From the NCBI GenBank assembly GCA_963751275.1, contig CAVVTZ010000011.1:374925-438924 (forward strand): a stretch of DNA of 64,000 nucleotides, given 5' to 3'. Every line of letters starts with the position of its first letter. The first letter of the stretch is position 1. The notes beneath the pieces were generated by a model, which was not told where the DNA came from, did no database searches, and worked only from the letters and a program-made list of their open reading frames with translations. Of this stretch, positions 5,741 through 21,724 are shown piece after piece. The position numbers and the translations under genes are program-made. The stretch comes from an uncultured Gemmatimonadaceae bacterium (GTDB lineage Bacteria > Gemmatimonadota > Gemmatimonadetes > Gemmatimonadales > Gemmatimonadaceae).

Positions 5741-6955
5741 CGGCGCTCTACCTGTACGACGACGCGCGCGCGCGCGCGTTCGAACCATTCGCGCTCACGC
5801 GGCCGGCGAGCGAGCTGCGTGCGGGCACCGCGATCATCCGGGAGCAATGGGAGATGGCGCTCGGCACGATCGATGCGCGCGCCGCCGGCGCGATCACGGC
5901 CGCGCATCTTGCCGACTTCTCCGAGGCGGGCGCGCCGCCGGCCGCGCGTGGCGTGGTGCCGGCCGGCGCGATCATCGCGAACAGCCGCTTCGCCGCATCG
6001 CTCACGCCGGCGCCCTTCGCGAAGGACGCGGCGGCGTGGACGAGCGGCGGGCGGACTTCCGCGGTGCGCATCGCGAAGGACGTGCCGCTCGCGGCGTTCA
6101 CGAACGGGAGCGCGACGCTCGAATCACTCGCCGTCGCCGGCGCTCCCACGAGCGAGATCGGCGGCCGCTGGCTGGATGAGGTGTGGCATCTCGATCACCA
6201 CGCTGTTGCCGACGCTGCGCGAGGACATCAATGCGATCGGCCCGACGTTCACGGGTACAGCGGTCGATCAGGCGACCGTGATCGGCCCGCATCCCGTGTA
6301 CGTGGAGGAGGGCGCGACGATCGAACCGCTCGTGGTGTTCGACGTCAGTGCCGGCCCGGTGATGGTGCGCGCGGGATCTGTTGTGCGCGCGTTCACCCGC
6401 CTCGCGGGACCGTGCGCCGTGGGCGCCGACAGTCAGATCCTGGGCGACCGTGTATCTGGCTGTTCGATCGGCGACCAATGCGTCGTGCGCGGCGAGATCA
6501 GCGAGAGCATCGTGATCGGGCACGCGAACAAAGGGCACGAAGGTTTCGTCGGCCACTCGGTGCTCGGCCGGTGGGTGAACCTGGGCGCCGGCACGATCAC
6601 GAGCAACCTGAAGAACAGCTACGGCACCGTGTCGCTCTGGACGCCGGAGGGCGTGCGCGACACCGGGACCGTGAAGCTCGGCACGTTCTTTGGCGACCAC
6701 GTGAAGACCGGGATCGGCGCGCGGCTCACCACCGGCTCGGTGATCGGCGCGGGGTCGAACATCTACGGCAGCGTGATGCCGCCGCGCCATGTGCCGCCCT
6801 TCTCGTGGGGAGACGGCGACGCGCTGGCAGAGTACCGCCTCGAGGAATTCTTGAAGACCACCGAGCGCGCGATGAGCCGGCGATCGGTCACGCTGAGCGA
6901 CAGCATGCGCCGGCAGCTCACCGCGGCGCATGCGTTAACGCGGCGCCGCGGCTAG
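5737..6955 (+). CDS. GlmU-like sugar nucleotidyl/acyltransferase with hexapeptide repeats (frameshift ~6190)
   Basis: PFALTRPASELRAG N-terminus; NKGHEGFVGHSVLGRWVNLGAGTITSNLKN; KLGTFFGDHVKTGI. Confidence 0.8.
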
Positions 6956-8334
6956 CTCCAGTCCCGACGGCGCAGCGGAGGCGCGCAGCCACGCCGCCGC
7001 CCGCTCCCCGCAGCGTACGGCGTTCACGGCCGCGTCGGCGAATCCGATCGCGCGCAACCCGTAGCCCGTGATGAACAATCCGGGCATCGCATCCACGGCG
7101 CGCTCGATGCGCTCCACGCGCTGCACGTGGCCGAGTTCGTACTGCGGGATGGCGCGCGGCCAACGCTGGATCGCCTGCATCACCGGCGCGGCGGTGATCC
7201 CGTACACGCGTGCGATCTCCGCGCGCGCGAGCGCCACCAGTTCGGCCTCGCGTCATCGCGCCGGCGTCCGGATCCACGCCGCCGCCGAACATCGCGCGGA
7301 TGAGCACGCTGCCCTGCGGACTCCGCCCGGGATAGAAGCGGCTCTCCCACAAGTTGCCGAGGGCGCGCAGTCCTTCGCCGCGCGCGATGAGCGCGCCGAA
7401 GCCGTTCGGCACGCGCGCCGCCTCCGCAGCTCCGAAGCCAAGGCCGACCACCGACACCGGCGGGCACTTGATCGCGTCCAGCTCCGCCGCGAGCGCCGCG
7501 TCGAGCGGCCGGAGGAGCGGCGCGGCGGCGAACGGCTCGGCCGCGATGAGGACGGCGTCCGCCGGGATCATCTCGCGGTCACCTTCCACCACGACCGACC
7601 ACCCCTGGTCCATGCGAACGATGGCACTCACCTTCGCGCCGAGCCGTACGCTGAACCCTCCGCGCGCCGCCACCGCCTCGGGAAAGCTCTGCATCCCGCG
7701 CCGGAAACTCGTGAGCGCGCCCGAGGTCGTCCTGCCCCGCTTCGCGATCATCCCGCGGATGATCGAACCGTGGTCGCGCTCGAGCGCGGTCATGCGCGGG
7801 AAGGCCGCTTCCACCGAGAGCGCACGCGCGTCGCCCGCGTAGATGCCGAGCGTCATGGGACGGATCATGCGGTCGGCCACCTGCGGCCCGAGCCGGCGCG
7901 CGGTGAAATCCCAGATCGATTCGTCGCCGCCGCCCGTGCGCCGCTTGATGAACGGTTCGCCCAACATCCGCAGCACGCCGCCCACGCCGAGAATGCCGTT
8001 CCGGACGAGCGCGATGGGATTCGGCGCGACCTCCCGCATCGTGCCGTCGATCAGGATGAATCGGTGCGCCGCCGCGGCGTCGGCCGTGACGCGCTCCCCG
8101 TCCATGCCGCAGCTCGTGATGAGCCGGTCGACATCCGGGCGCCCCCCGAGGAATCCGCCGGGTCCCGCTTCCACCAGCCAGCCATCGCGCGCGATCGTGC
8201 GCGCCTTGCCGCCCACCTGCGGACTCGCGCTCGAGTACGAGGATCTCCGCCGCGGCCGCGCCCACCGACTGCCGCACCGCCCACGCCGCCGCGAGCCCGC
8301 TGATCCCGCCGCCGATCACCACGATGCGCTTCAT
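6935..8334 (-). CDS. hemY: Protoporphyrinogen oxidase, HemY-type flavoprotein (frameshifted)
   Basis: VIGGGISGLAAA FAD motif, EAGP, GIYAGD, WPRAIPQY. Confidence 0.9.
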
Positions 8335-8336
8335 GG

Positions 8337-9761
8337 TCACACCGTGCGGCTGAACACCGGCTTCGCGGCGCCCGCGTGCTTCTCGCGCTGATATCGGTCG
8401 AAGCACATCGCCAGGTTGCGCACGAACAGCTGGCCGACCGCCGTCGCCTCGATGCGCGCCGGCGTGACCGTGACCATCCCTTCCCGCTCGTGCGGCGCGA
8501 GCGCCGAGAGATCCGACGCGAAGTATCCGGCGAAGTCGATGCCGAACTCGCGCTCGATCGCGCCGGTGTCCACGCGGAAGTTGCACATTAGCTCGTGGAT
8601 CACCTTGAGCCGCACCGCATCGTCCGCGCTGCGCGCGACGCCGCGCGCCACCGGCAGCTTCCCCGCCGCGATCATCTCCTCGTACGTCGACAGCTTCTTC
8701 TCGTTCTGCACGTACGCGCCGCGCACGTCGCCGATGGCGGAGATCCCGAGGCCGAGCACATCATCGCCGGGGATCACGGTGTAGCCCTGGAAGTTCCGGC
8801 GGAGCCGTCCCTCGCCGAGCGCGCGCGACAGCTCATCATCCGGCCGCGCGAAATGGTCCATCCCGATCGCCGTGTACCCCGCCTTGAGGAATTTCTCCCG
8901 CGCGATCGCGAAGAGCGCGATCTTGGTCTCCGCGTCGGGGAGCTGGTCCTCTTCGAGCTTCTTCTGATTGCCGCGCACCCACGGCACGAACGCGAACGAA
9001 TACACCGCCGTGCGGTCCGCGCCCAGCGAGATCACGGAATCGATGGTGCGCTCGAAGCTCTCCGGCGTCTGCAGCGGCAGTCCGTAGATGAGGTCGACGT
9101 TGATCCCGCGGAATCCACGGCGCCGCGCGTGCTCGATCAAGCCCGCCGTCTGCTCGAGGCTCTGCACCCGGTTCACCGCCTCCTGCACCGCCGGCGTGAG
9201 GTCCTGCACGCCGAGCGAGATCCGATTGAAGCCGAGATCGGCGAGCGCGTCGAGATGCGCGTTGGTCGTCACGCGCGGATCCGCCTCGAGCGCGAGTTCG
9301 GCGCCGGGCATCGGCCGGAATTCCTTGAGCAGCGGCGTGAGCAGGTCGGTGAGCTGCGCCGGCGTGTAATACGTCGGCGTGCCGCCGCCGAGATGGAGCT
9401 GCGCGACGCGCCGGCGGTTCGGCAGCCGCTCGGCGAGCATCGCGATCTCGCGCTTCAGCAGTTCGAGGTACGGCGCCGCCATCTCCTTGTGCTTGGTCAC
9501 GATGACGTGGCACCCGCAGAAGAGACAGCGCTCTTCGCAGAACGGGAGGTGCACGTACATCGACAGCGGCGCATCGCCCAGCCGGTCGGCCTCCGCGAGC
9601 CGCCGCTCATAGTCGTCCGCGGTGAACCCCTCGTGGAATTCGACGGCGGTCGGATAGCTCGTATAGCGTGGGCCCGGCTGGTCGTACCGCGCGAGCAGCT
9701 CGGCGGTGACGCTGCGGCTGACGGGCGCCGCGCCGGGAGCGCGACTCTTGGTGGCGCTCAT
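8337..9761 (-). CDS. hemN: Oxygen-independent coproporphyrinogen III dehydrogenase
   Basis: GPRYTSYPTA, HLPFCEERCLFCGC radical SAM motif, GGGTPT, GMDHFA, RNFQGY. Confidence 0.96.
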   Translation of the reverse strand: MSATKSRAPGAAPVSRSVTAELLARYDQPGPRYTSYPTAVEFHEGFTADDYERRLAEADRLGDAPLSMYVHLPFCEERCLFCGCHVIVTKHKEMAAPYLELLKREIAMLAERLPNRRRVAQLHLGGGTPTYYTPAQLTDLLTPLLKEFRPMPGAELALEADPRVTTNAHLDALADLGFNRISLGVQDLTPAVQEAVNRVQSLEQTAGLIEHARRRGFRGINVDLIYGLPLQTPESFERTIDSVISLGADRTAVYSFAFVPWVRGNQKKLEEDQLPDAETKIALFAIAREKFLKAGYTAIGMDHFARPDDELSRALGEGRLRRNFQGYTVIPGDDVLGLGISAIGDVRGAYVQNEKKLSTYEEMIAAGKLPVARGVARSADDAVRLKVIHELMCNFRVDTGAIEREFGIDFAGYFASDLSALAPHEREGMVTVTPARIEATAVGQLFVRNLAMCFDRYQREKHAGAAKPVFSRTV

Positions 9762-10780
9762 GACGACTTCTCCCCGTGCACGACTTCGACGAGCGCGTGC
9801 ACGCTGTCGATCGGTGTGTCAGGCATGATGCCGTGCCCGAGGTTGACGATGTGGCCGCGCGCCGGCACACGCGCGAGCAGCGCCCGCGCCGCGCGCCGCG
9901 TGGCGTCCGGACCGGCGAGCAGGATCGCGGGATCGAGATTTCCCTGCAGCGCTTTCGCGGCGCCGAGGGTCGTGCGCAGCGCCGCGAGGTCCTCGCGCCA
10001 GTCGACGGCGAGCGCCTCGGACTCCAGCGCGCCGTACAGCTCGACGAGATGCGGCGCGTCCTGCACGAAGAGGATCCGCGGCACGCCGAGCGATCTCGTC
10101 TCGGCGAGATAGCGCACCGAGGTGCGGGCGCACGAGCCGCGTCCAGTCGGCGCGCGAGAGCACGCCGGCCCAGGTGTCGAACAGCTGCACCGCCTGCGCG
10201 CCGGCGCCCACCTGGCGCTGCACGTAGCGAATGACGAGGCTCGGTGAGCTTGGTGAGCAGCGCGCAGAGCAGCCCCTCATCGCGCGCCGCGAGCGCGCGC
10301 AGCGCCGGGAAGCCGGGGCTGCCCCGCCCTTGCACCAGATACGCGGCCAGCGACCAGGGCGCGCCGGCGAAACCGAGCAGCGTCGCGCGGCCGTCTAGCG
10401 CGCGCTGCACGCGGCCCAGCGCGTCGATCACCTCGGGGGCGATCTCGTCATCGGCCGGCTCGCGCAGCGCGTCCACATCGGCCGCGGTGCGCACCGGCGC
10501 GGCGAGTACGGGGCCCGGATCGAAGCGCACCGGCGACGCCGAGCGCGGGGATGGGGCTCATGAGATCGGCGAAGATGATCGCGCCGTCGAGCGGGAAGCG
10601 CGCGAGCGGCTGCAGCGTCACCTCGGCGGCGAGCTCCGCGCTCCCCGACAGTTCCTCGAAGCTGTGCTTCGCGCGCAGCGCGCGGTATTCGGGCAGATAG
10701 CGGCCCGCCTGCCGCATGACCCAGAGCGCGCGGCGCTCGGTCGCTTCGCCGCGCAGCGCTCGCAGCAGGATATCGTTCAT
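9758..10780 (-). CDS. hemE: Uroporphyrinogen decarboxylase (frameshifted)
   Basis: [33 protein letters not shown]. Confidence 0.95.
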
Positions 10781-11503
10781 GCGCCGTCTCCTTCGCCGTC
10801 GGCGCTGAAGCGGTAGCCGATGCCGCGCACCGTGTGGAAATGGCGCGGCTTCTCGGGATCCGGCTCGAAGCGCTTGCGCAGCCGCATGACGAAGTTGTCG
10901 ATCGTGCGCGTGGACGGGAGCACGTCGTCGCCCCACACCTTCTCGAGCAGCTCGTCGCGCCAGACCACCGCGCCGCGCCGCTGCACCAATTCCTTGAGGA
11001 TCATCGCTTCCTTCTGCGTGAGCAGCTGGTCGCGCCCGTCGAACGACCGGCCGCGAAAGTTGCGGAAATCGAATTCGTTGCCGCCGAAGCGCACCACCGG
11101 CTCGAGCGCGGTGATCGGCGTCGTAGCGCACGCGGCGCCGCAGGATGGCGGACACGCGCAGCAGCAGCTCGCGCAGTTGGAACGGCTTCGGCAGGTAGTC
11201 GTCGCCGCCCGCCTCGAGGCCGCGGATGCGGTCGTTCGGGCCGCCCTTCGCGGTGAGGAAGAGCACCGGGGTGTCGCGCCCCTCGCGGCGCATCGTCTCG
11301 CACACCGAGAAACCGTCCATGCCCGGGAGCATCACGTCGAGGACGATCAGATCGAACTCTTCCTGCCGGATCTTCGCGAGCGCGACGCGTCCGTCGCCGA
11401 GCACGTCCACGTGGTAGCCCTCGGCCTCGAGGTTCTCGCGGATGCCGCGCGCGAGATTGAGCTCGTCTTCCACGAGCAGGATGCGGGGCGTCGTGTCGGT
11501 CAT
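10777..11503 (-). CDS. OmpR/PhoB-family response regulator (frameshift ~11115)
   Basis: [21 protein letters not shown]; winged helix [23 protein letters not shown]. Confidence 0.92.
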
Positions 11504-12610
11504 GATGCGACGGATCCCGGCCGCGGGCCAGATCACGGTGAACGTCGCGCCCTGTCCCGGGCCGTCGCTCGCCGCCGCGACGGTGCCGCGGTCGAGCTCG
11601 ACGTGCCGGCGCACCAGGAACAGGCCGAGCCCGGTGCCACGCGTGCCGCCGCGCTCCTCGCGCTCGATCCGGTAGAACTTCTCGAACAAGCGCGCGGCCT
11701 CGTCGGCGGAGAACCCGCTGCCCTCGTCCTGCACCTCGAGCACGACCGACCCATTCGTGCGCGGACCCGCGGATGCCGCACGGTGCGTCCGGGCGGCGAT
11801 GCCTTGATCGCGTTGTGGAGGAGATTGCGGAGCACGATGATGCGTGCCGTCGCGCTCGCCCGCACGGTCAGGTCACGCCGGCCACGCCGGCGTCGATCGT
11901 CACGCTCGCACTCGGCCGCGAAGCCGGCGAGCTCTTCGACGACGCTGCCGACCTCCTCGGCGAGCTCGATCGGTTCCGGCGTGCGGCGCGCCCGTCCGCG
12001 GCGAGGCGCGAGGCGTCGAGCACATTCGCGATCATCCCCTGCAGCCGGCCGAGCTCGACGAGCATGCGGCGCACGAGCTCGCCGCGCTGCGCCGGCGGCG
12101 GGTCGCGCATCGCGAGCGTCTCCACCGACAGCCGGAGGCTCGCGAGCGGACTCTTGAGCTCGTGCGACATGCCGGCGAGGAATTGCTCCTGGCCGCGCCG
12201 CAGCTCGGCCTCCTCACGGAGCGCGCGGTACGACGATCACCATCGCGCCGACGAGCACCACGAGGAAGAACGCGCCCTCCCACGCGTAGCGGTTGAGGCG
12301 GTGGAAGCGCTGGCGCTTCAGGTCATCGAGCACGATCGGCGACACGGCGATCATCGAGGAGTCGGCGCTGATCGTGAGCGCGGGGAACGCGGCGCTCAGT
12401 TCGCGCCAGCTGCGGCCCGAGCGCAGGAGCGCGCGCGCGACGACGCTGTCGCGGGTCGATACGTCGATTCCTGCGCCGCGAGCACGGCGCCCGTGTAGCG
12501 CACCTGGTCCACGAGCCACCAGCCGAGCTACGGTGGTGCAACGTGAGCAGGACGAGGAATCCACATCTGCAGGCGGCGGGTGCGGCGGAGCGTGGTCGGC
12601 GTGCGCTCAC
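11500..12610 (-). CDS. Membrane sensor histidine kinase (multiply frameshifted)
   Basis: [15 protein letters not shown]-box [33 protein letters not shown]. Confidence 0.88.
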
Positions 12611-13916
12611 GCGAGCAGCGCCTCCGCGGGAGCGGCCAGCGCGGCCGCGAGCGCGTCGCGCAGTCGCGCGAGATGCGCGGGCGTGTGCGCGAGCGAGAGG
12701 AACCCCGCCTCGTACGCGGACGGCGCGAGCGCGATGCCGCGCGTCGAGCAGCGCGTGGAAGATCGGCGCATAGCGCGCCGCGGCGGCGCCGTCGATGCGC
12801 TCGGCCGCGCGCGGTGCGGCGCCCGCCTGCAGCGAGATCCAGAAGAGCGAGCCGGCGCGCACGAGCGCCGCCGGCTCCGGCGCGGCCGCGAGCACCGGCG
12901 CGAGCATGGCCTCGAGCGCGGCGCCGGTCGCCTCGAGTTGACGCCAGCCGTCCTCGCGCTCGAGCACGTTCAGCGTGGCGAGCCCCGCGGCCATCGCCGC
13001 CGCGTTCCCCGAGAGCGTGCCGGCCTGGTACACAGGACCCTCGGGCGCCAGCATGCGCATGATGTCGCGCCGACCGCCGAACGCGCCCACCGGCAGTCCG
13101 CCGCCGATCACCTTGCCGAAGGTCGCGAGGTCCGGCGTGATGCCGAGCAGCTCCGCGGCGCCGCCCTGCGCGAGGCGGAAGCCGCTGATCACCTCGTCGA
13201 AGATGAGCAGCGCGCCGGCCCGCTCCGTCTCGCGGCGGAGCGCCGCGAGAAATTCGGGCCGCTGCAGCAGCAGGCCGTTGTTCGCCGGCACCGGCTCGAT
13301 GATCACCGCGGCGATCTCGTCGCCACGCGGGCGCAGCAGCGCGGTGAAGGCCGCTTCGTCGTCGAGCGGCAGCACGAGCGTCTCGCCGCGCGAACGCCGC
13401 GGGAACACCGGCCGACGACGGCGTGCCGAAGGTCACGAGCCCGGAGCCGGCCGCCACGAGCAGATGATCCGCGTGGCCGTGGTAGCAGCCGGAGAACTTC
13501 ACGATCTTGTCGCGCCCCGTGTAACCGCGCGCCACGCGGATCGCGCTCATCGTCGCCTCGGTGCCCGACGAGACGAAGCGCACCTGATCGAGCCCCGGAT
13601 ACCAGCTCACGATGCGTTCGGCGAGCTCGATCTCCGTCTCGCCCGGCGCGCCGAAGCTCGTGCCCCGTCCGCCGGCCGCGATGATCGCGTCGCGGACCGC
13701 CGGATGCGCGTGGCCGAGAATGAGCGGCCCCCACGAGTTCACGAAGTCGACGTAGCGCTGGCCGTCCACATCCTCGAACTCCGCGCCGCTCGCGCTATGG
13801 AACACGAGCGGCGTGCCGCCCACCGCGCGATACGCGCGCACCGGCGAACTCACGCCGCCGGGCATCACGCGCTCGGCGCGCTCCATCCACGCTTTCGACG
13901 AGGCGCCGGCGCTCAC
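12607..13916 (-). CDS. hemL: Glutamate-1-semialdehyde 2,1-aminomutase (frameshifted)
   Basis: [53 protein letters not shown]. Confidence 0.96.
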
Positions 13917-14923
13917 AGCCAGCCTCCGGCGAGCGCTTCGCGCGCGTGGTACGTGATGACGATCTCCGCGCCCGCGCGCGCCATGGCGTGCAGGTTCTCG
14001 CGCACGACCGCTGCCTCGTCGAGCCAGCCGGCCCGCGCGGCGGCCTTCACCTGCGAGTATTCGCCGCTCACATTGTACGCCGCGAGCGGCAGGTCGGTCG
14101 CTTCGCGCACGGCGCGGATGATGTCGAGATAGGCCAGCGCCGGCTTCACCATGAGCATGTCCGCGCCCTCGCGCGCATCGAGCAGCGCCTCGCGCACCGC
14201 CTCCGCCGCATTGCGCGGATCCATCTGGTAGCTCCGGCGGTCGCCGTGCTGCGGCGCGCTGTCCGCGGCTTCGCGGAACGGGCCATAGTAGGCCGACGCG
14301 TATTTCACGGCGTACGAGAGGATCGCGGTGTTCACGAATCCGCGCTCGTCGAGCAGGTCGCGGATCGCACCGACGCGGCCGTCCATCATGTCGGATGGGG
14401 CCACGATGTCCGCCCCCGCTTCGGCGTGCGCCGCGGCCATCTCGGCGATCGGGCGAAGCGAAAGATCGTTGTCCACTTCGCCGTCGCGCAGCACGCCGCA
14501 GTGGCCGTGGTCCGTGTACGCGCACAGGCACACGTCGGTGACGATAACGATGTCCGAACCGAGCGCGTCCTTCAGCGCGCGGATCGCCCGCGGCACCGTG
14601 CCGTCGGGATCGCGCGACGCCGCGCCGTCGGCATCCTTCTCGCCGGGCGCCGGCGTGCCGAAGAGCAGCACCGTCCGCACGCCGAGCTTCCGGTCCGCCT
14701 CCACCGCGCGCACGAGCGGCTCGATCCCCAGCCGCGCGATCCCCGGCATGGACGCGATCGGCTCCTGGCCGCGCGCCGATGGGAGCACGAAGTGCGGCAT
14801 GATCAATTGATCCGCGCGCACGTGCGTCTCGGCGACGAGATCGCGGAGCGCGGGAGTGTGGCGGAGCCGGCGCGGGCGCGTGCGCCCGGGGCTGACGAGG
14901 GTCTCGGTCGTTTCGGTGATCAT
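13913..14923 (-). CDS. hemB: Porphobilinogen synthase (Zn-type)
   Basis: [43 protein letters not shown]. Confidence 0.97.
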
Positions 14924-15654
14924 GGGAGCGCCTCCAACATGCCATCGAGATCGGGCCGCCGCGCCTCGGCGGACACCGGGAGTCCCACCGCCGCTGCGGC
15001 CGCCGACGTCGTGGGACCAATTGTGATGACGCGCGCGTCCGGCGGGAAGTGCGCGCGATTGACGAAGCCTTCGGCCGCCGACGGGCTGGCGAGCAGGATC
15101 GCGTCGATCCCTTCCGCGGCGAGATCGCGCTTGGGCCCATCGGCCGGCGCCGGGATCATCGCGTAGACGTTCACGCGCGTCACGGGGACGCCGGCCTCTT
15201 CGAGCGCGCGCTCGACGTCCGTCCGTCCGTACACGGCGCCCGCGACCACCACGCTCGCCTCGGTGGCCGCGCCGCCGAGCCGCTCGAGCAGCTCGTGCGC
15301 CAGACCCCGCGCATTGCTCTCCGTGGCGACCAAGTCCACGCGGCCCAGCGCCAGCGCGGCGGCGCGCGCGGTGACCGGGCCGACGACCGCGACGTGCAGC
15401 GCCCGCGGCAGGGTGCCGTCCACGATCGCGCCCACGGCCTCGGCCGCGCGCCGCGAGGCGAGCACCAGCCACGACGCGTTGGCGATCGCCGCGCGCAGCG
15501 CGCGGGCGGTGTCGGCGTCGTGCATCGTGGCGATCACCAGACACGGCATCACCACCGGGACCGCGCCGAGCTTCCGGAGCCGCGCGGCCCAGCGCTCGGC
15601 GTCCTCCGCCGCGCGCGTGACGAGGATCCGCCGCCCCGCGAGCGCGGGCGTCAT
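14920..15654 (-). CDS. hemD: Uroporphyrinogen-III synthase
   Basis: [26 protein letters not shown]; position after hemC. Confidence 0.9.
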
Positions 15655-16568
15655 GCGATCACGGCGGCGGACAATGCACCCCACGCCAATGCCGCCAGCG
15701 CCTCGGGATCATCCCCCATCACGTCGGCGCGCGCGACCGAGCCATCCTCGCCACCAAGCATGGTGTAAAGATGCAACGTCGCACCGCCGGCGTCGCACCA
15801 TGCGCCAAAGGGGAGCGCGCAGCCGGCCTCGGCGAGACCAAGCAGCGCACGCTCGGCGCGCAGCGCGCGCGACGTGCGCGGGTCGTCCAGCGCGGCCACC
15901 GCAGCGAGAACGCCGCCGGCATCGCGCCGCACCTGCACCGCGATGGCGCCCTGCGCCGGCGCCGGCACGAAGCGCCGCGGATCGAGACGCGTGCGCGCGA
16001 TCTCCACCGGCACGAGCGCCGAGCCGCTCGCGCGATCCAGACGCTCGAGACCGGCTGCCGCGAGCAGGATCGCATCGAACTTGCCGTCCGTGAGCGCGCG
16101 AACGCGCGTAGGGACGTTGCCGCGCAACAGCGCGATCTCGAGGTCGGGGCGCGCCTCGGCCAGGAGTGCTTTGCGCCGCGCCGCCGACGTGCCCACCCGC
16201 GCACCCGCGCGGAGCGGGATCGCTCCGGCGGACGCGTTCGCCGCCTCGGGGCGCACGAGCAGCACGTCCGCGGCATCGAGCCGTTCCGGCACCGCGGCCA
16301 CCACCAGTCCGTCGGGGCTCTTCGACGGAAGGTCCTTGTACGAGTGCACGGCGACATCGGCGCGGCCGTCGAGCAGCGCCGCTTCGATCTCGCGCACGAA
16401 CACACCGAAGCTGCCGACGTCGGTGAACGCGCGGTCGGTGACCTGGTCGCCGATCGTGGAGATCACGATCGTCTCAGTGGTGTGCCCCGCGGCCTCGAGG
16501 CGGCGCGCGACATCCGCCGACTGCGCGCGCGCGAGCGCGGAACCGCGCGTGGCGATGCGCAGTCTCAT
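15651..16568 (-). CDS. hemC: Hydroxymethylbilane synthase
   Basis: IATRGSALA, AVHSYKDLP, GTSAARR, RGNVPTR, PAPAQGA. Confidence 0.96.
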   Translation of the reverse strand: MRLRIATRGSALARAQSADVARRLEAAGHTTETIVISTIGDQVTDRAFTDVGSFGVFVREIEAALLDGRADVAVHSYKDLPSKSPDGLVVAAVPERLDAADVLLVRPEAANASAGAIPLRAGARVGTSAARRKALLAEARPDLEIALLRGNVPTRVRALTDGKFDAILLAAAGLERLDRASGSALVPVEIARTRLDPRRFVPAPAQGAIAVQVRRDAGGVLAAVAALDDPRTSRALRAERALLGLAEAGCALPFGAWCDAGGATLHLYTMLGGEDGSVARADVMGDDPEALAALAWGALSAAVIA

Positions 16569-17910
16569 GATTCCTCCAATTCCTGCTCGATGAGCATCGC
16601 CACGCCGGACTCTCCGGCCGCGTCGTGCAGCTGCTTCGCGAGCTCCGGCTCGGTGTGCGACAGGAAGGCTTCGACCGCGGCGGGCCCCGCCTGGAAGACC
16701 AGGTCGCGCAGCCCCACGGACGGCACGTGCGCGAAGCGCCGCGCGAGCGTCTCCGCCCAGCGGCGCACGGCATCGCGTTCGGGCTCGCCGAGCGCCGCCA
16801 ACTCCTGCTTGAAGAGGCGCTCGACGCCCTCGATGGCGGTGTGACGGAAGCGCCGGTGCAGGTCGGCGATCATCGGTCCGATGAGCCGCTCCGCCATCTG
16901 GCGCCGGAGTTCGGTGAGCGACGTGTCCACGATCTCGCGCGCATCCGCGAACTCGCCGATCACGCGCTCGCGATCCTCGGCGGCGGAGAGGGAGATCTCA
17001 TCCATGCCGACGCGCGGGACGTCGGCGGCGATCGCGTCCTCGGGGGTGACGTTGGGCGGGATCGCGAGATCGATGATGAGCGGGCTCTGCGCCGACGGCG
17101 TGCGCGCCGCGATGCGCTCGAGGTCGGCGCGCGCGAACACGGGCTCCTTCGCGCCGGTGGCGACGATCACCACTTCCACGCCGTCGGGCGACTCGCGGAA
17201 CGCAGTCGAGCGAGCGCGCCTCACCCTGCACCGCGCTCGCGAGCGACTGCGCGCGCTCGAGCGTGCGGTTCACGATGACGACGCCGGTGCCGGCCGCCGC
17301 GAGCTCGCGCGCGCACTGCTCGGTCATCGGCGACACGCCTACGAGCGCGACGCGGCCCGGCGTGCGTGCCAGGCGCTCGCGGGCATACCGCACCGCGACC
17401 TGCGCGAGCGATACGCGGCCGATCCGTCCTTCCGTCACGGGCCGCACCTTCTTCGCCACCCGCAGCGCCTCGGTGAAGAGCGCATCGAGGTGCGGTCCGA
17501 GCAGCGCGAGCTGCCGGGACCCTTCCACCGCCTCGCGCACCTGGCCCACGATCTCGCTCTCTCCCACGCGCGCCGACTCGAGGCCGGCGGCGACGAGGAA
17601 GAGATGCTCGGCCGCGCCTTCGCCCTGCCACGCGCGCAGCGTGTGCTCGGCCTCGCCGGCGCGCGGCTCGCGGCCCGTGAGTTCGGCGAAGATGCGCCGG
17701 CGCAGCACGGGGCAGCGGCGTATGGCCGTCGGAGGAGAACACCACCTCCACGCGATTGCACGTCGCGAGGTAGACCAGCTCCGGCACGCCGATCACCGCG
17801 GCGAGCCGCGGGACGCACTCGGCGCGCTCGCCCTTGGCGATCGTGAAGGACGCGATCGTATCCGCGGTCCCGTGTCTCCAGGAAATGCCGACGACGCCGA
17901 TGCGGTGCAT
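16565..17910 (-). CDS. hemA: Glutamyl-tRNA reductase (frameshifts ~17710 and ~17210)
   Basis: YLATCNRVE catalytic Cys motif, GESEIVGQV, VNRT, IDLAIP; first gene of hem operon. Confidence 0.9.
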
Positions 17911-17985
17911 GTGCGCTCCCGGTTCCGAATGATCACGCCGCGTGGATCACGCGACACGGGGGATGCTATCCATGCGCGCAAGGCG

Positions 17986-18007
17986 TGTGTCACAGGAATG
18001 TCATCGC
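17986..18007 (-). promoter_or_regulatory. Candidate OmpR-family tandem operator upstream of hemA
   Basis: TGTGTCACAGGAATGTCATCGC; TGTCA repeated at 11-bp spacing; 19/22 identical to 19027-19048; TAGCAT -10 at 17968-17963. Confidence 0.65.
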
Positions 18008-18038
18008 CCGTCGGGGAATCCCGGGCGCACGGGCATGA

Positions 18039-18995
18039 TCAGCCTCGGGCCAGATTCGCGAGAGACGCGATGAACTCCGGGCGGTCCTCGACGGCGGCCA
18101 CGCGAAGTAGGGATTCTCCCCCGGCCTCCGTAAAGGATTCCCTGCCACGAATCCCGATCTCTTCGATGGTCTCGAGGCCATCGGTGAGGAATCCGGGGGT
18201 GATCACGGCCACGCGGCGCACTCCGCGGCGCGGCAATTCCTCGAGCACCGTGGCCGTCGCGGGGGTGAGCCACGGCTCGGGACCGAATTTCGACTGGTAC
18301 GCGTGCGTCGCACGATCCGCCGGCCACTCGAGCGCGGCGAGCAGCGCGCGCGTGGTCGCTTCACAGTCGGTGGTGTAGGTGCGGCGTTCGCGGCGATCGT
18401 AGCGCACGGGGATGCCGTGGTACGAGAGCACGAGATGGTCGGGTGGCGCGTCCGCACGCGCGAGTGTCTCGCGCCAGACGGCGGTCATCGCGCGCACGTA
18501 TCCGCCTTCATCCGCGGGAATGACGCGCTCCACCACGCGCGATGCGATGCCCGCGCGCGCGGCGGCTTCCCGCGCGCGCTGGAACGCGGTGCCCGTCGTC
18601 GCGTCGGTCCGGTGCGGGAAGAGCGGGACCACGACGATGGGGCCGGTGGTCTCGCGCGCGAGCCGCGTCATTTCGCGGTCGAGCGACGGTTCACCATAGC
18701 GGTAGGCCGCGCTCACCGTGAAGCGGCCGTCCGCGATCGCGCGCACGGCCGCGACCATGTTCTCCGTTCCCACGCGCAGCGGCGAGCCACCCGCCTGCCA
18801 GATCGAGGCATACTGCTCGGCGACGCGCGCCGGCCGGCTGCGCAGGACCATCGTGCGCAGGATCGGCTGCCAGAGCCAGCGCGGCAGATCGACCACCGAG
18901 GGGTCGCTCAGGAACTCGTCGAGGAACTCGCGCACCGCCTCGGCCGTGGGCGCGGTGGGCGTGCCGAGGTTCACCAGCAATAGGTGTGGCGTCAT
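18039..18995 (-). CDS. hemH: Ferrochelatase
   Basis: LLVNLGTP, FLSDP, GGSPL, SYHGIP, YQSKFGPEPWLTP, DGLETIEE. Confidence 0.95.
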   Translation of the reverse strand: MTPHLLLVNLGTPTAPTAEAVREFLDEFLSDPSVVDLPRWLWQPILRTMVLRSRPARVAEQYASIWQAGGSPLRVGTENMVAAVRAIADGRFTVSAAYRYGEPSLDREMTRLARETTGPIVVVPLFPHRTDATTGTAFQRAREAAARAGIASRVVERVIPADEGGYVRAMTAVWRETLARADAPPDHLVLSYHGIPVRYDRRERRTYTTDCEATTRALLAALEWPADRATHAYQSKFGPEPWLTPATATVLEELPRRGVRRVAVITPGFLTDGLETIEEIGIRGRESFTEAGGESLLRVAAVEDRPEFIASLANLARG

Positions 18996-19026
18996 ACCGT
19001 GACGATAAGGGGGACCGGCGGCACGC

Positions 19027-19048
19027 TGTGTCACAGTCCTGTCATCGC
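19027..19048 (-). promoter_or_regulatory. Candidate OmpR-family tandem operator upstream of hemH
   Basis: TGTGTCACAGTCCTGTCATCGC; matches hemA box; TATCGT -10 at 19007-19002. Confidence 0.65.
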
Positions 19049-19863
19049 GCCGCTCCCTCGAACTGCGCGGTGTACGCCCGCACCCGCTCGAGATAGTCGC
19101 GCGCCTCGGTGCTGTCCCCGCCGAGTTCGGCCAGATGGTCCGTCCACGCGGCTCCGTGCTTCTTCACGAGATCGTGCACGCGGATGTAGCCGCGGTTGTA
19201 GCACACCGTGACGAGATCGATGAGCTGCGACTCGGTGAGCGGCGCACCGCCGTTGATCCGCTTCCGGGCGAACGAGCCGTAGCCCCCGGGCCAGAAATCG
19301 GTGGACCATTTGTTCTCGAGCAGCCGGATCCAGAAGACCGCGGCGCGCGCGGCGTGATCAGGGGCGAAGAGATACTCGTTTCGCGACGTGACCGCACCGG
19401 CGCGCAGCAACGAATCGATGGCCGTGGCCGTGGGCGAACCCGCGTGCACGAGTGGCGACCGCGGCCACGCGGTGACCTCGGGCGCCATCCAATGGAAGTG
19501 ATACTCCGTGACCATGAGCCGGAGGTCGGCATCGGTGCGCGCCGTGAGTTGCGCGATCCCGAGCGCCGGCGCCGCCGAGACCGCGAGTGTGTCACCGGCG
19601 CTCTCCTTCACGAGGAGGGCGATGACGTAGCCGGGATCGATGCCGAGCCGCGGATCGCGCCCCCATCGCTCCACGAGCGGCGCGATGCGGCGCATGACGA
19701 ACTCGTAGTTCCCCGCACTCGCGATGCGCAGGCTGCCGTTCGCATTGCGCACGGAGTCGCGCGGCACCGCCGCCACGCGCGACGCCGAGTCGGCATGGAA
19801 GCGCAGTCCTTGCGCGGACAAGGACGTCGGAACCAGGAGGGATACGAGCAGCAGAACACGCAT
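19042..19863 (-). CDS. Secreted SLT-like lytic transglycosylase
   Basis: Signal peptide; KES..AVS...ALGIAQL and CYNRG resemble SLT motifs I-III. Confidence 0.7.
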   Translation of the reverse strand: MRVLLLVSLLVPTSLSAQGLRFHADSASRVAAVPRDSVRNANGSLRIASAGNYEFVMRRIAPLVERWGRDPRLGIDPGYVIALLVKESAGDTLAVSAAPALGIAQLTARTDADLRLMVTEYHFHWMAPEVTAWPRSPLVHAGSPTATAIDSLLRAGAVTSRNEYLFAPDHAARAAVFWIRLLENKWSTDFWPGGYGSFARKRINGGAPLTESQLIDLVTVCYNRGYIRVHDLVKKHGAAWTDHLAELGGDSTEARDYLERVRAYTAQFEGAAR

Positions 19864-19888
19864 CGTGCACTCAATCTATCAGTGTGGT

Positions 19889-19978
19889 CATCATGCAAAT
19901 CATGTGCATCCTGTCAAAAGGCCGTTGCAGGTCTGGCCCAAGAACTGCTTTGACAGGATGAGCATGATCAACAAGATG
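19889..19978. repeat. Palindromic element A (3x 9-mer arms)
   Basis: catcatgca-aatcatgtg-catcctgtc / gacaggatg-agcatgatc-aacaagatg; perfect 12-bp IR core CATCCTGTCAAA; homologous to 57111-57197. Confidence 0.8.
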
Positions 19979-19986
19979 GGTACAAT

Positions 19987-20018
19987 GAAGCGGGCCCGGC
20001 TTTCGCCGGGCCCGCTTC
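19987..20018 (-). terminator. Hairpin terminator after groEL
   Basis: Perfect 14-bp stem GAAGCGGGCCCGGC with GAAA loop on minus strand. Confidence 0.75.
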
Positions 20019-20059
20019 GGCCGTATCTAACGTCCAACGCCCAACGTCTGGGAGTTGGT

Positions 20060-21724
<1,665 letters not shown>

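Follow-up and report, generated by a model that had tools for sequence, protein, structure and literature searches.

A two-component system embedded in the heme biosynthesis operon of an uncultured Gemmatimonadaceae bacterium very probably acts on that operon through a conserved promoter element, as an orthologue of the HemKR system of Leptospira; the signal to which it responds is less certain. The pair lies in a 64,000-nucleotide (nt) stretch of DNA, here called the window (GenBank assembly GCA_963751275.1, contig CAVVTZ010000011.1, positions 374,925 to 438,924 of the forward strand), where hemH, hemA, hemC, hemD, hemB, hemL, the kinase gene, the regulator gene, hemE, hemN and hemY follow one another on the minus strand (Table 1). 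Homologues with known names put the organism in Gemmatimonadales. As the preliminary description of this DNA had noted, the sensor kinase and the OmpR-type regulator sit between hemL and hemE, linked by overlapping start and stop codons (GTGA, ATGA and ATGA). Our analysis establishes the homology of the pair, its gene order, the position of the element, and the co-occurrence of element and pair. We refer to the genes as hemK and hemR; this hemK encodes a sensor kinase and is unrelated to the HemK/PrmC methyltransferase of the same name.

Although the preliminary description took this arrangement to be new, it has already been reported as Leptospira HemKR (Hklep/Rrlep), encoded between hemL and hemE and using the same hem-box. 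According to the excerpts available of Louvel 2008 (PMC2266917), L. interrogans hklep/rrlep lie between hemE and hemL and are co-transcribed with both, the pair is required for full expression of hemAEL, with weaker effects on hemH, and a pair in Bdellovibrio is likewise linked to hem genes. Corresponding excerpts of Imelio 2024 (PMC11426443) describe phosphorylated HemR binding the hem-box, TGACA[N6]TGACA, to activate hemA and repress hmuO, and identify 5-aminolevulinic acid (ALA) as a shut-off cue that triggers HemK phosphatase activity via T102. The genes are LEPBIa1423/1422 in L. biflexa and LB014/LB015 in L. interrogans; we found the kinase in 77 of 81 Leptospiraceae genomes, and a published primer retrieved six named saprophytic Leptospira loci with hemK-hemR. 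Among eight Leptospiraceae loci, three have the order hemA-C-B-L-K-R-E-N-Y with a box before the first gene, two have the pair near hemE and hemN, and three have the pair or the kinase with no hem genes. At all five Leptospira hemA promoters examined, a short first open reading frame (ORF) being taken as hemA by its position, a hexamer (TAGAAT, TATAGT or TATGAT) stands 19 nt past the box. The hem-box itself was reportedly first defined by Morero in 2014. Our literature search, which left subscription papers and most supplements uncovered, found no report of HemKR outside Leptospira apart from the Bdellovibrio remark, and plasmid searches for the Leptospira hem locus gave none among the matches listed (30 of 90 and 60 of 75 records).

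In the window, two 22-mers placed before hemA and before hemH are identical at 19 of 22 positions, and each contains TGTCA twice at 11-bp spacing, just as first described. Because the cluster genes lie on the minus strand, each box reads TGACA-N6-TGACA in the direction of transcription. Their common 18-mer occurs at zero or one mismatch only at these two places in the window's own genome assembly (3.1 Mb in 14 contigs, 83% complete), and at two mismatches there are four occurrences. A shuffle test confined to the window is weak by itself, as 6 of 100 shuffles reached two matches when two mismatches were allowed. With a weight matrix trained on 15 orthologous hemA boxes, the window boxes ranked first and second genome-wide, at 32.6 and 29.1 bits, the next site scoring 19.0; one of the training sites has the same sequence as the window's hemA box, and the hemH box was outside the training set. 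Only these two hem sites stood out in the scan of the 83%-complete assembly, with none before the heme oxygenase or ExbBD genes. Elsewhere in the genome, outside the window, a perfect TGACA-N6-TGACA lies within an inverted repeat right after the apparent end of a transfer-messenger RNA gene (C11:128570-128670). This was considered as a third site (TGTCA-N6-TGTCA at C11:128648) and set aside, being part of an inverted repeat beside that gene end with no -10 at the right distance.

Phylogenetic footprinting bore out the box at hemA. A search for the kinase detected it in 13 of 400 Gemmatimonadota genomes and missed the window's own genome because of its frameshifts. All 21 intact cassettes that retain the upstream region of hemA have the box there: 13 of 13 first-round cassettes with hemA in view, that of the congener G001, and seven held out. 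At the first-round Gemmatimonadota sites, the distance from box to TAnnnT is 19 nt (12 of 15) or 20 nt (3 of 15). The held-out set took in eight of nine newly found genomes, omitting one (G681) whose regulator lies at a contig start; seven have full cassettes, all with the box 19 nt before TAnnnT, and the eighth (G689) has a rearranged hemH-hemA-K-R with the box before hemH. G689 and G276 represent one genus with a shorter-loop pair (L260 and L027), which stands alone in G276 and behind hemH-hemA only in G689. By comparison, the box was found in 0 of 22 hemA upstream regions of pair-less genomes (at most two mismatches, within 400 nt). These controls were what remained of 29 hemA loci from 41 relatives after removal of four with the pair and three without usable upstream sequence; leaving out the unpublished G012 makes the count 0 of 21. 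The hemA genes of this control set belong to a different type and are not necessarily the first of their operons. A combined box-plus-minus-10 pattern matched 12 of the 13 pair genomes, a circular figure since the pattern was derived from those loci; the exception is G276, where the pair has no hem genes nearby. The same pattern matched 6 of 387 genomes lacking the pair (reversed control, 2 of 401): G126 has this cassette too, on a contig that stops within hemB, G091 has the box before a different kinase, and four matches are at unrelated genes. Beyond the phylum, a metagenome scan with one generic H-box pattern, read from the matches listed and not a census, turned up a Sphingobacteriaceae-like cassette with a one-mismatch box 20 nt before TACTTT. 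This locus (L091:4634-13541) reads hemA-C-B-L-K-R-x-hemE plus a probable hemJ, and its kinase has a loop of only ~10 residues.

The proteins point the same way. Due to the frame breaks discussed below, protein analyses were based on the intact orthologues of G001 and G021. In a tree of 76 regulators, made by FastTree only, the hem-linked regulators of Leptospira, Gemmatimonadota and Bacteroidota-like type form one clade of 31 with support 0.97, comprising 9 Leptospira sequences (of 35), 14 from Gemmatimonadota, 6 from metagenome cassettes and two further proteins; the other 45, among them all five other OmpR regulators of the window's genome, fall outside it. Asp56 of the window regulator aligns with Leptospira Asp53, and both have an RTIDN recognition helix. 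The kinases of both groups have WW after the first transmembrane helix (TM1) and EGxFF in the second (TM2). Every Gemmatimonadota-type kinase scored (119 of 119), and every Leptospiraceae one (35 of 35), has the Glu of this motif 38 residues ahead of its phospho-His, and Glu occupies the same position in 72 of 72 matched Sphingobacteriaceae-type kinases (48 of 120 missed the motif expression) and in 73 of 74 distant members. With a sensor profile built from Leptospira alone, 166 of the 172 two-TM members of the family scored at least 5 bits, as did 2 of 66 two-TM kinases from outside it; among the short-loop Sphingobacteriaceae-type proteins only 24 of 120 did so. Searches of PDB sequences returned generic OmpR regulators; 4q7e, which we take to be the L. 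biflexa HemR receiver, came 29th among 49 entries, which shows that the receiver by itself cannot tell these regulators apart. Riemerella PhoPR was rejected as the Bacteroidota equivalent, as it has a different motif and heme is not mentioned in the part of the source text available.

Could the box instead be the site of PhoB, or of another OmpR-family regulator, with the embedded pair doing something else? The E. coli Pho box also has a TGTCA-like repeat at 11-bp spacing, and regulators of this family bind direct repeats that cover the -35 region with a spacing of 11 bp. The plus-strand TGTCA repeat of the window resembles it, and many of these proteins carry PhoP/PhoR labels in databases. 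Three Gemmatimonadota genomes (G080, G332 and G091) also have a pair of a second kind, with a similar box before its own kinase gene; the regulator of this pair, read in G080 and G091, has an RTVDN helix. Yet in the window's genome, which carries a separate phoB-phoR-pstS locus, the upstream regions of phoB and pstS have no box; a single two-mismatch match falls inside the gene before phoB, and a lone half-site far upstream of pstS. Relative to transcription the repeat is in the orientation opposite to that of the Pho box, the TGTCA likeness being on the other strand. The PhoB helix reads RTVDMH, and a DN helix is found in none of the five other OmpR regulators of this genome; against the PhoB model TIGR02154 the window regulator scores 168.8 bits (cut-off 296.2), and among the 25 matches listed no NCBIfam model reached its cut-off. 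The second kinase type was not found in this 83%-complete genome, and across genomes the box tracks the pair, not the phylum. We therefore regard a PhoB-like site as highly improbable. The second pair is a different one (loci L045, L049, L033, L285 and L286), with a long TPR-like kinase, an RTVDNH helix in the regulator and a TGACA-N6-TGACA box 19-20 nt before the -10; cross-talk between it and HemR is possible in G080 and G332, which hold both pairs.

A simpler possibility is that the element is a promoter and nothing more, the second half-site GTGACA serving as a -35 hexamer that requires no regulator. GTGACA does match TTGACA at five of six positions, and Leptospira sites often have TTGACA there. 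However, the spacer is 19-21 nt in place of 16-18, a consensus scan calls no promoter at these sites, and the upstream half-site is conserved at a distance of exactly 11 bp even though the sequence between the two half-sites varies. Binding has, moreover, been published for Leptospira, as the excerpts of Imelio 2024 (PMC11426443) record. A plain promoter thus seems barely plausible, and we retain the reading of the element as a HemR site.

The preliminary description had further proposed that the dedicated pair co-activates the whole pathway, itself included, through boxes at both entry points. The proposal is supported at hemA; at hemH, the entry point with a box is particular to this lineage. 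The hemH upstream regions of 13 of 14 other cassettes lack the box at up to two mismatches, and in the fourteenth (G004) a two-mismatch remnant abuts the start codon and has no -10. Since a relative represented by one low-depth contig from an unrelated study has a one-mismatch variant at the same place, the hemH site is probably real in the window's lineage. G689 supplies a second case of a box before hemH, and the core of the window's hemH box differs by 1 nt from the published LEPBIa3430 site. From the position of its -10-like hexamer, hemH would have a leaderless start. Immediately upstream is a gene with an SLT domain (lytic transglycosylase-like, 19042-19863); the TGA in the first half-site of the hemH box doubles as the stop codon of this gene. 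The sole consensus sigma-70 promoter within 6500-20200 (19890-19917, minus strand; TTGACA, 16 nt, CATGAT) faces this gene and hemH, and may allow hemH transcription from upstream without HemR.

A further concern is the state of the window's copy. The cluster has 13 frame breaks in ~12 kb, affecting the kinase, the regulator, hemA, hemL, hemE and hemY. At ~1.1 per kb this is ~2.5 times the background rate of 0.41 per kb, which comes from 37 breaks over 91 kb in 77 background genes checked against a relative. Four of the breaks are in the kinase, rpoB is open, and three congeners lack both the cassette at this site and hemE, all of which would suit a decaying pseudogene cluster with the boxes as relics. 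On the other hand, 26 of the 77 background genes are broken too, most of the indels that can be placed clearly are single-base (+1) insertions, which short-read relatives and G004 do not have, the gene pieces are 69-94% identical to G001 (three kinase segments excepted, at 49-59%), and both boxes are perfect. The breaks are probably sequencing errors, and we consider decay of the cassette quite unlikely. A search of sequencing runs listed no RNA run as containing the sequence, the best share being 0.11.

Several points nevertheless weigh against assigning the window pair to HemKR. Identity to Leptospira is modest, at 35% for the regulator and 23% for the kinase over the aligned part, and cross-scores of the sensor profiles are low, with medians of ~8 bits. 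Four residues after the phospho-His, 118 of 119 Gemmatimonadota-type kinases have Ser where 35 of 35 Leptospiraceae kinases have Thr, the T102 required for phosphatase activity; the Ser is also found in 120 of 120 Sphingobacteriaceae-type kinases, and the change is conservative. One of two distant metagenome cassettes with the hemA upstream region in view (L086) has no recognisable box. According to the available excerpts, hemA was not significantly changed in an L. biflexa hemKR deletion, pointing to composite control (Imelio 2024, PMC11426443). The break rate above background leaves some room for decay of the window copy, and support for binding or expression in Gemmatimonadota is carried over from Leptospira.

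If the pair is indeed HemKR, control most likely runs as follows. HemK would be on by default and phosphorylate HemR, and phospho-HemR would bind both TGACA half-sites, which are spaced by one turn of the helix. The one downstream takes the place of a -35, although it is 19 nt away from the -10; RNA polymerase would be recruited by the bound HemR. One transcript from hemA to hemY, hemK and hemR included, would give positive autoregulation, and in this lineage hemH would respond as well. A build-up of ALA, or of later porphyrins or heme, would then act through the membrane part of HemK to turn it into a phosphatase, switching the pathway off. In Leptospira there is published evidence for phosphotransfer, the box, hemA activation and ALA-triggered dephosphorylation, with box binding, hemA activation and the ALA response reported for L. 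biflexa (Imelio 2024, PMC11426443); by analogy, the same binding, sign of control and signal would be expected in Gemmatimonadota. Alternatively, the pair could bind the box but respond, by way of its larger periplasmic loop, to oxygen or redox, to the state of the envelope or to iron. This loop is ~70 amino acids (aa) long, with a helix and a beta-hairpin, as against ~30 aa in Leptospira; even there the direct ligand is unproven. Loop length varies freely, however, from ~10 to ~70 residues across the family, including a 32-aa deletion in the fusion proteins described below, while the residues at the membrane edge stay fixed. In L. biflexa the loop was dispensable for growth, and a kinase with a replaced loop still complemented the mutant (Louvel 2008, PMC2266917, in excerpt). 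These observations make another signal unlikely, and the earlier suggestion of a periplasmic heme-binding domain doubtful.

The cassette has a patchy distribution. In the window's genome and in G004, a 12-kb cassette (window 6935-19042) lies between the SLT gene and a nucleotidyltransferase gene, and the same site is empty in the congeners G001, G002, G003 and G005 (L221, L222, L223 and L224), G001 having its cassette elsewhere. We did not find hemE in G002, G003 or G005 (genomes 63-89% complete), and these may depend on outside heme. The window's hemA is only 26-40% identical to the usual Gemmatimonadota HemA. Of the 400 genomes, 14 have hemA of this cassette type: 12 that also have the pair, G126 and G112. 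Between the window's genome and G004 the cassette genes have diverged about as much as their flanks, which argues against recent transfer between the two. In a tree of seven hem proteins, with no topology test behind it, the cassettes of a second family do not form one clade, and three nest in the first family next to G001. The history of the cassette is likely one of transfer and loss. Internal deletions are also seen (L002 = G021, L017, L019, L021 and L255), always with box and pair kept: hemC-D-B-L is missing in G021, G080 and G377, and hemD was not detected in G332 and G597.

In one relative, G112, the cassette is complete except that the kinase core and receiver have been deleted in frame (L230:13896-14675). 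What remains is a single 259-aa ORF that joins the TM1-loop-TM2 of HemK to the winged helix of HemR, and the hemH-hemA spacer with its box and -10 is gone. That kinase core, receiver, box and promoter were lost together we count in favour of pair and box acting as one system. G706, from the same genus, has an intact pair and box, and its kinase and regulator genes share an in-frame 7-nt repeat at the junction. The fusion is found in 1 of 330 family genomes searched and in 11 protein clusters (P0393-P0403) at 53-100% identity, in a 259-aa and a 227-aa form; its sequence diversity indicates a conserved protein and not a single accident. All 11 clusters have replaced the Asn of the RTIDN helix. 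In a structural model (mean pLDDT 82), TM2 runs as one unbroken helix into a winged helix of normal form, and a fold search with the model found matches to the winged helix alone. The ten loose box matches in G112 (seven in ORFs, three intergenic, none at the hem operon) allow no regulon to be assigned to the fusion, and its loss of the box would fit a relic as well as a rewired regulator. A precedent exists in Neisseria gonorrhoeae Rsp, a PilS sensor fused to the PilR DNA-binding domain (Demey 2023, PMC10269533, in excerpt).

Table 1. Heme cluster and promoter elements in the window (window coordinates).
Feature	Position	Strand	Remarks
hem-box before hemH	19027..19048	-	core TGACA-N6-TGACA at 19044-19029
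-10-like hexamer TATCGT	19002..19007	-	21 nt past box, 6 nt before hemH ATG
hemH, ferrochelatase	18039..18995	-	TIGR00109 above cut-off
hem-box before hemA	17986..18007	-	core 18003-17988; kept in orthologous cassettes and Leptospira
-10-like hexamer TAGCAT	17963..17968	-	19 nt past end of TGACA repeat, hemA side
hemA, glutamyl-tRNA reductase, cassette type	16565..17910	-	2 frame breaks
hemC	15651..16568	-	TIGR00212 above cut-off
hemD	14920..15654	-	PF02602
hemB	13913..14923	-	named by sequence and position; 83% identity to G001 orthologue
hemL	12607..13916	-	G001 orthologue above NF000818 cut-off; 2 frame breaks
hemK (Hklep), sensor kinase	11500..12610	-	TM1, ~70-aa loop, TM2, HisKA, HATPase_c; phospho-His codon 12164-12162; 4 frame breaks
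hemR (Rrlep), OmpR-family regulator	10777..11503	-	Asp56; recognition helix RTIDN; 1 frame break
hemE	9758..10780	-	G001 orthologue above TIGR01464 cut-off; 3 frame breaks
hemN	8337..9761	-	TIGR00538 above cut-off
hemY/hemG, protoporphyrinogen oxidase	6935..8334	-	last gene of cassette; TIGR00562 above cut-off; at least 1 frame break

While the core arrangement was already known from Leptospira, related genomes show the pair to be far more widespread than reported. The first 110 residues of the L091 kinase alone have 3161 relatives, many labelled PhoR, and because box, spacing and gene order are kept across phyla, many PhoP/PhoR-labelled proteins in these groups are probably heme regulators. 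The cross-phylum comparison also narrows the HemK sensor down to a few invariant residues at the membrane's outer edge, beside a loop that can shrink to ~10 residues; these are targets for mutagenesis in L. biflexa, a harmless model, to learn what HemK binds. A broader proposal, which we put forward tentatively and consider doubtful as a whole, is that HemKR is a portable, self-regulating heme cassette of Spirochaetota, Bacteroidota, Gemmatimonadota and probably Acidobacteriota, its kinase reading porphyrin within the membrane through invariant Trp, Arg and Glu residues. The pair would, in one Gemmatimonadaceae lineage, have collapsed, by in-frame deletion between two 7-nt repeats, into a working, phosphorylation-free, one-protein membrane transcription factor for the same ligand. 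If so, this would be a rare example from nature of a two-component system becoming a membrane-bound one-component regulator, with the parent pair still present in the same genus.

Heme homeostasis is also under two-component control in Staphylococcus (HssRS) and Corynebacterium (HrrSA/ChrSA), but those systems are switched on by heme, act mainly on its efflux or use, bind other boxes, and are not known to be encoded inside the biosynthetic operon. For the fusion, Neisseria Rsp is the closest precedent, as it too joins a sensor to the DNA-binding domain of its own regulator with loss of kinase core and receiver; it derives from the PilSR families, in contrast to the HemK TM1-loop-TM2 and OmpR winged helix found inside the hem operon. 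The window system differs from Leptospira HemKR in phylum, in its patchy occurrence, in its longer loop, and in the position of hemH, which is upstream on the same strand with its own box where Leptospira hemH is downstream on the opposite strand. Its two genomic sites also do not match the wider Leptospira regulon (hmuO, exbB1D1 and a TonB receptor), which we regard as a matter of regulon content and not as defining the family. What the two systems share is a two-TM HisKA kinase and an OmpR regulator encoded between hemL and hemE, as in the pathogenic-type arrangement, the gene order hemA-C-D-B-L-K-R-E-N, and a perfect TGACA-N6-TGACA at hemA, 19 nt from the -10.

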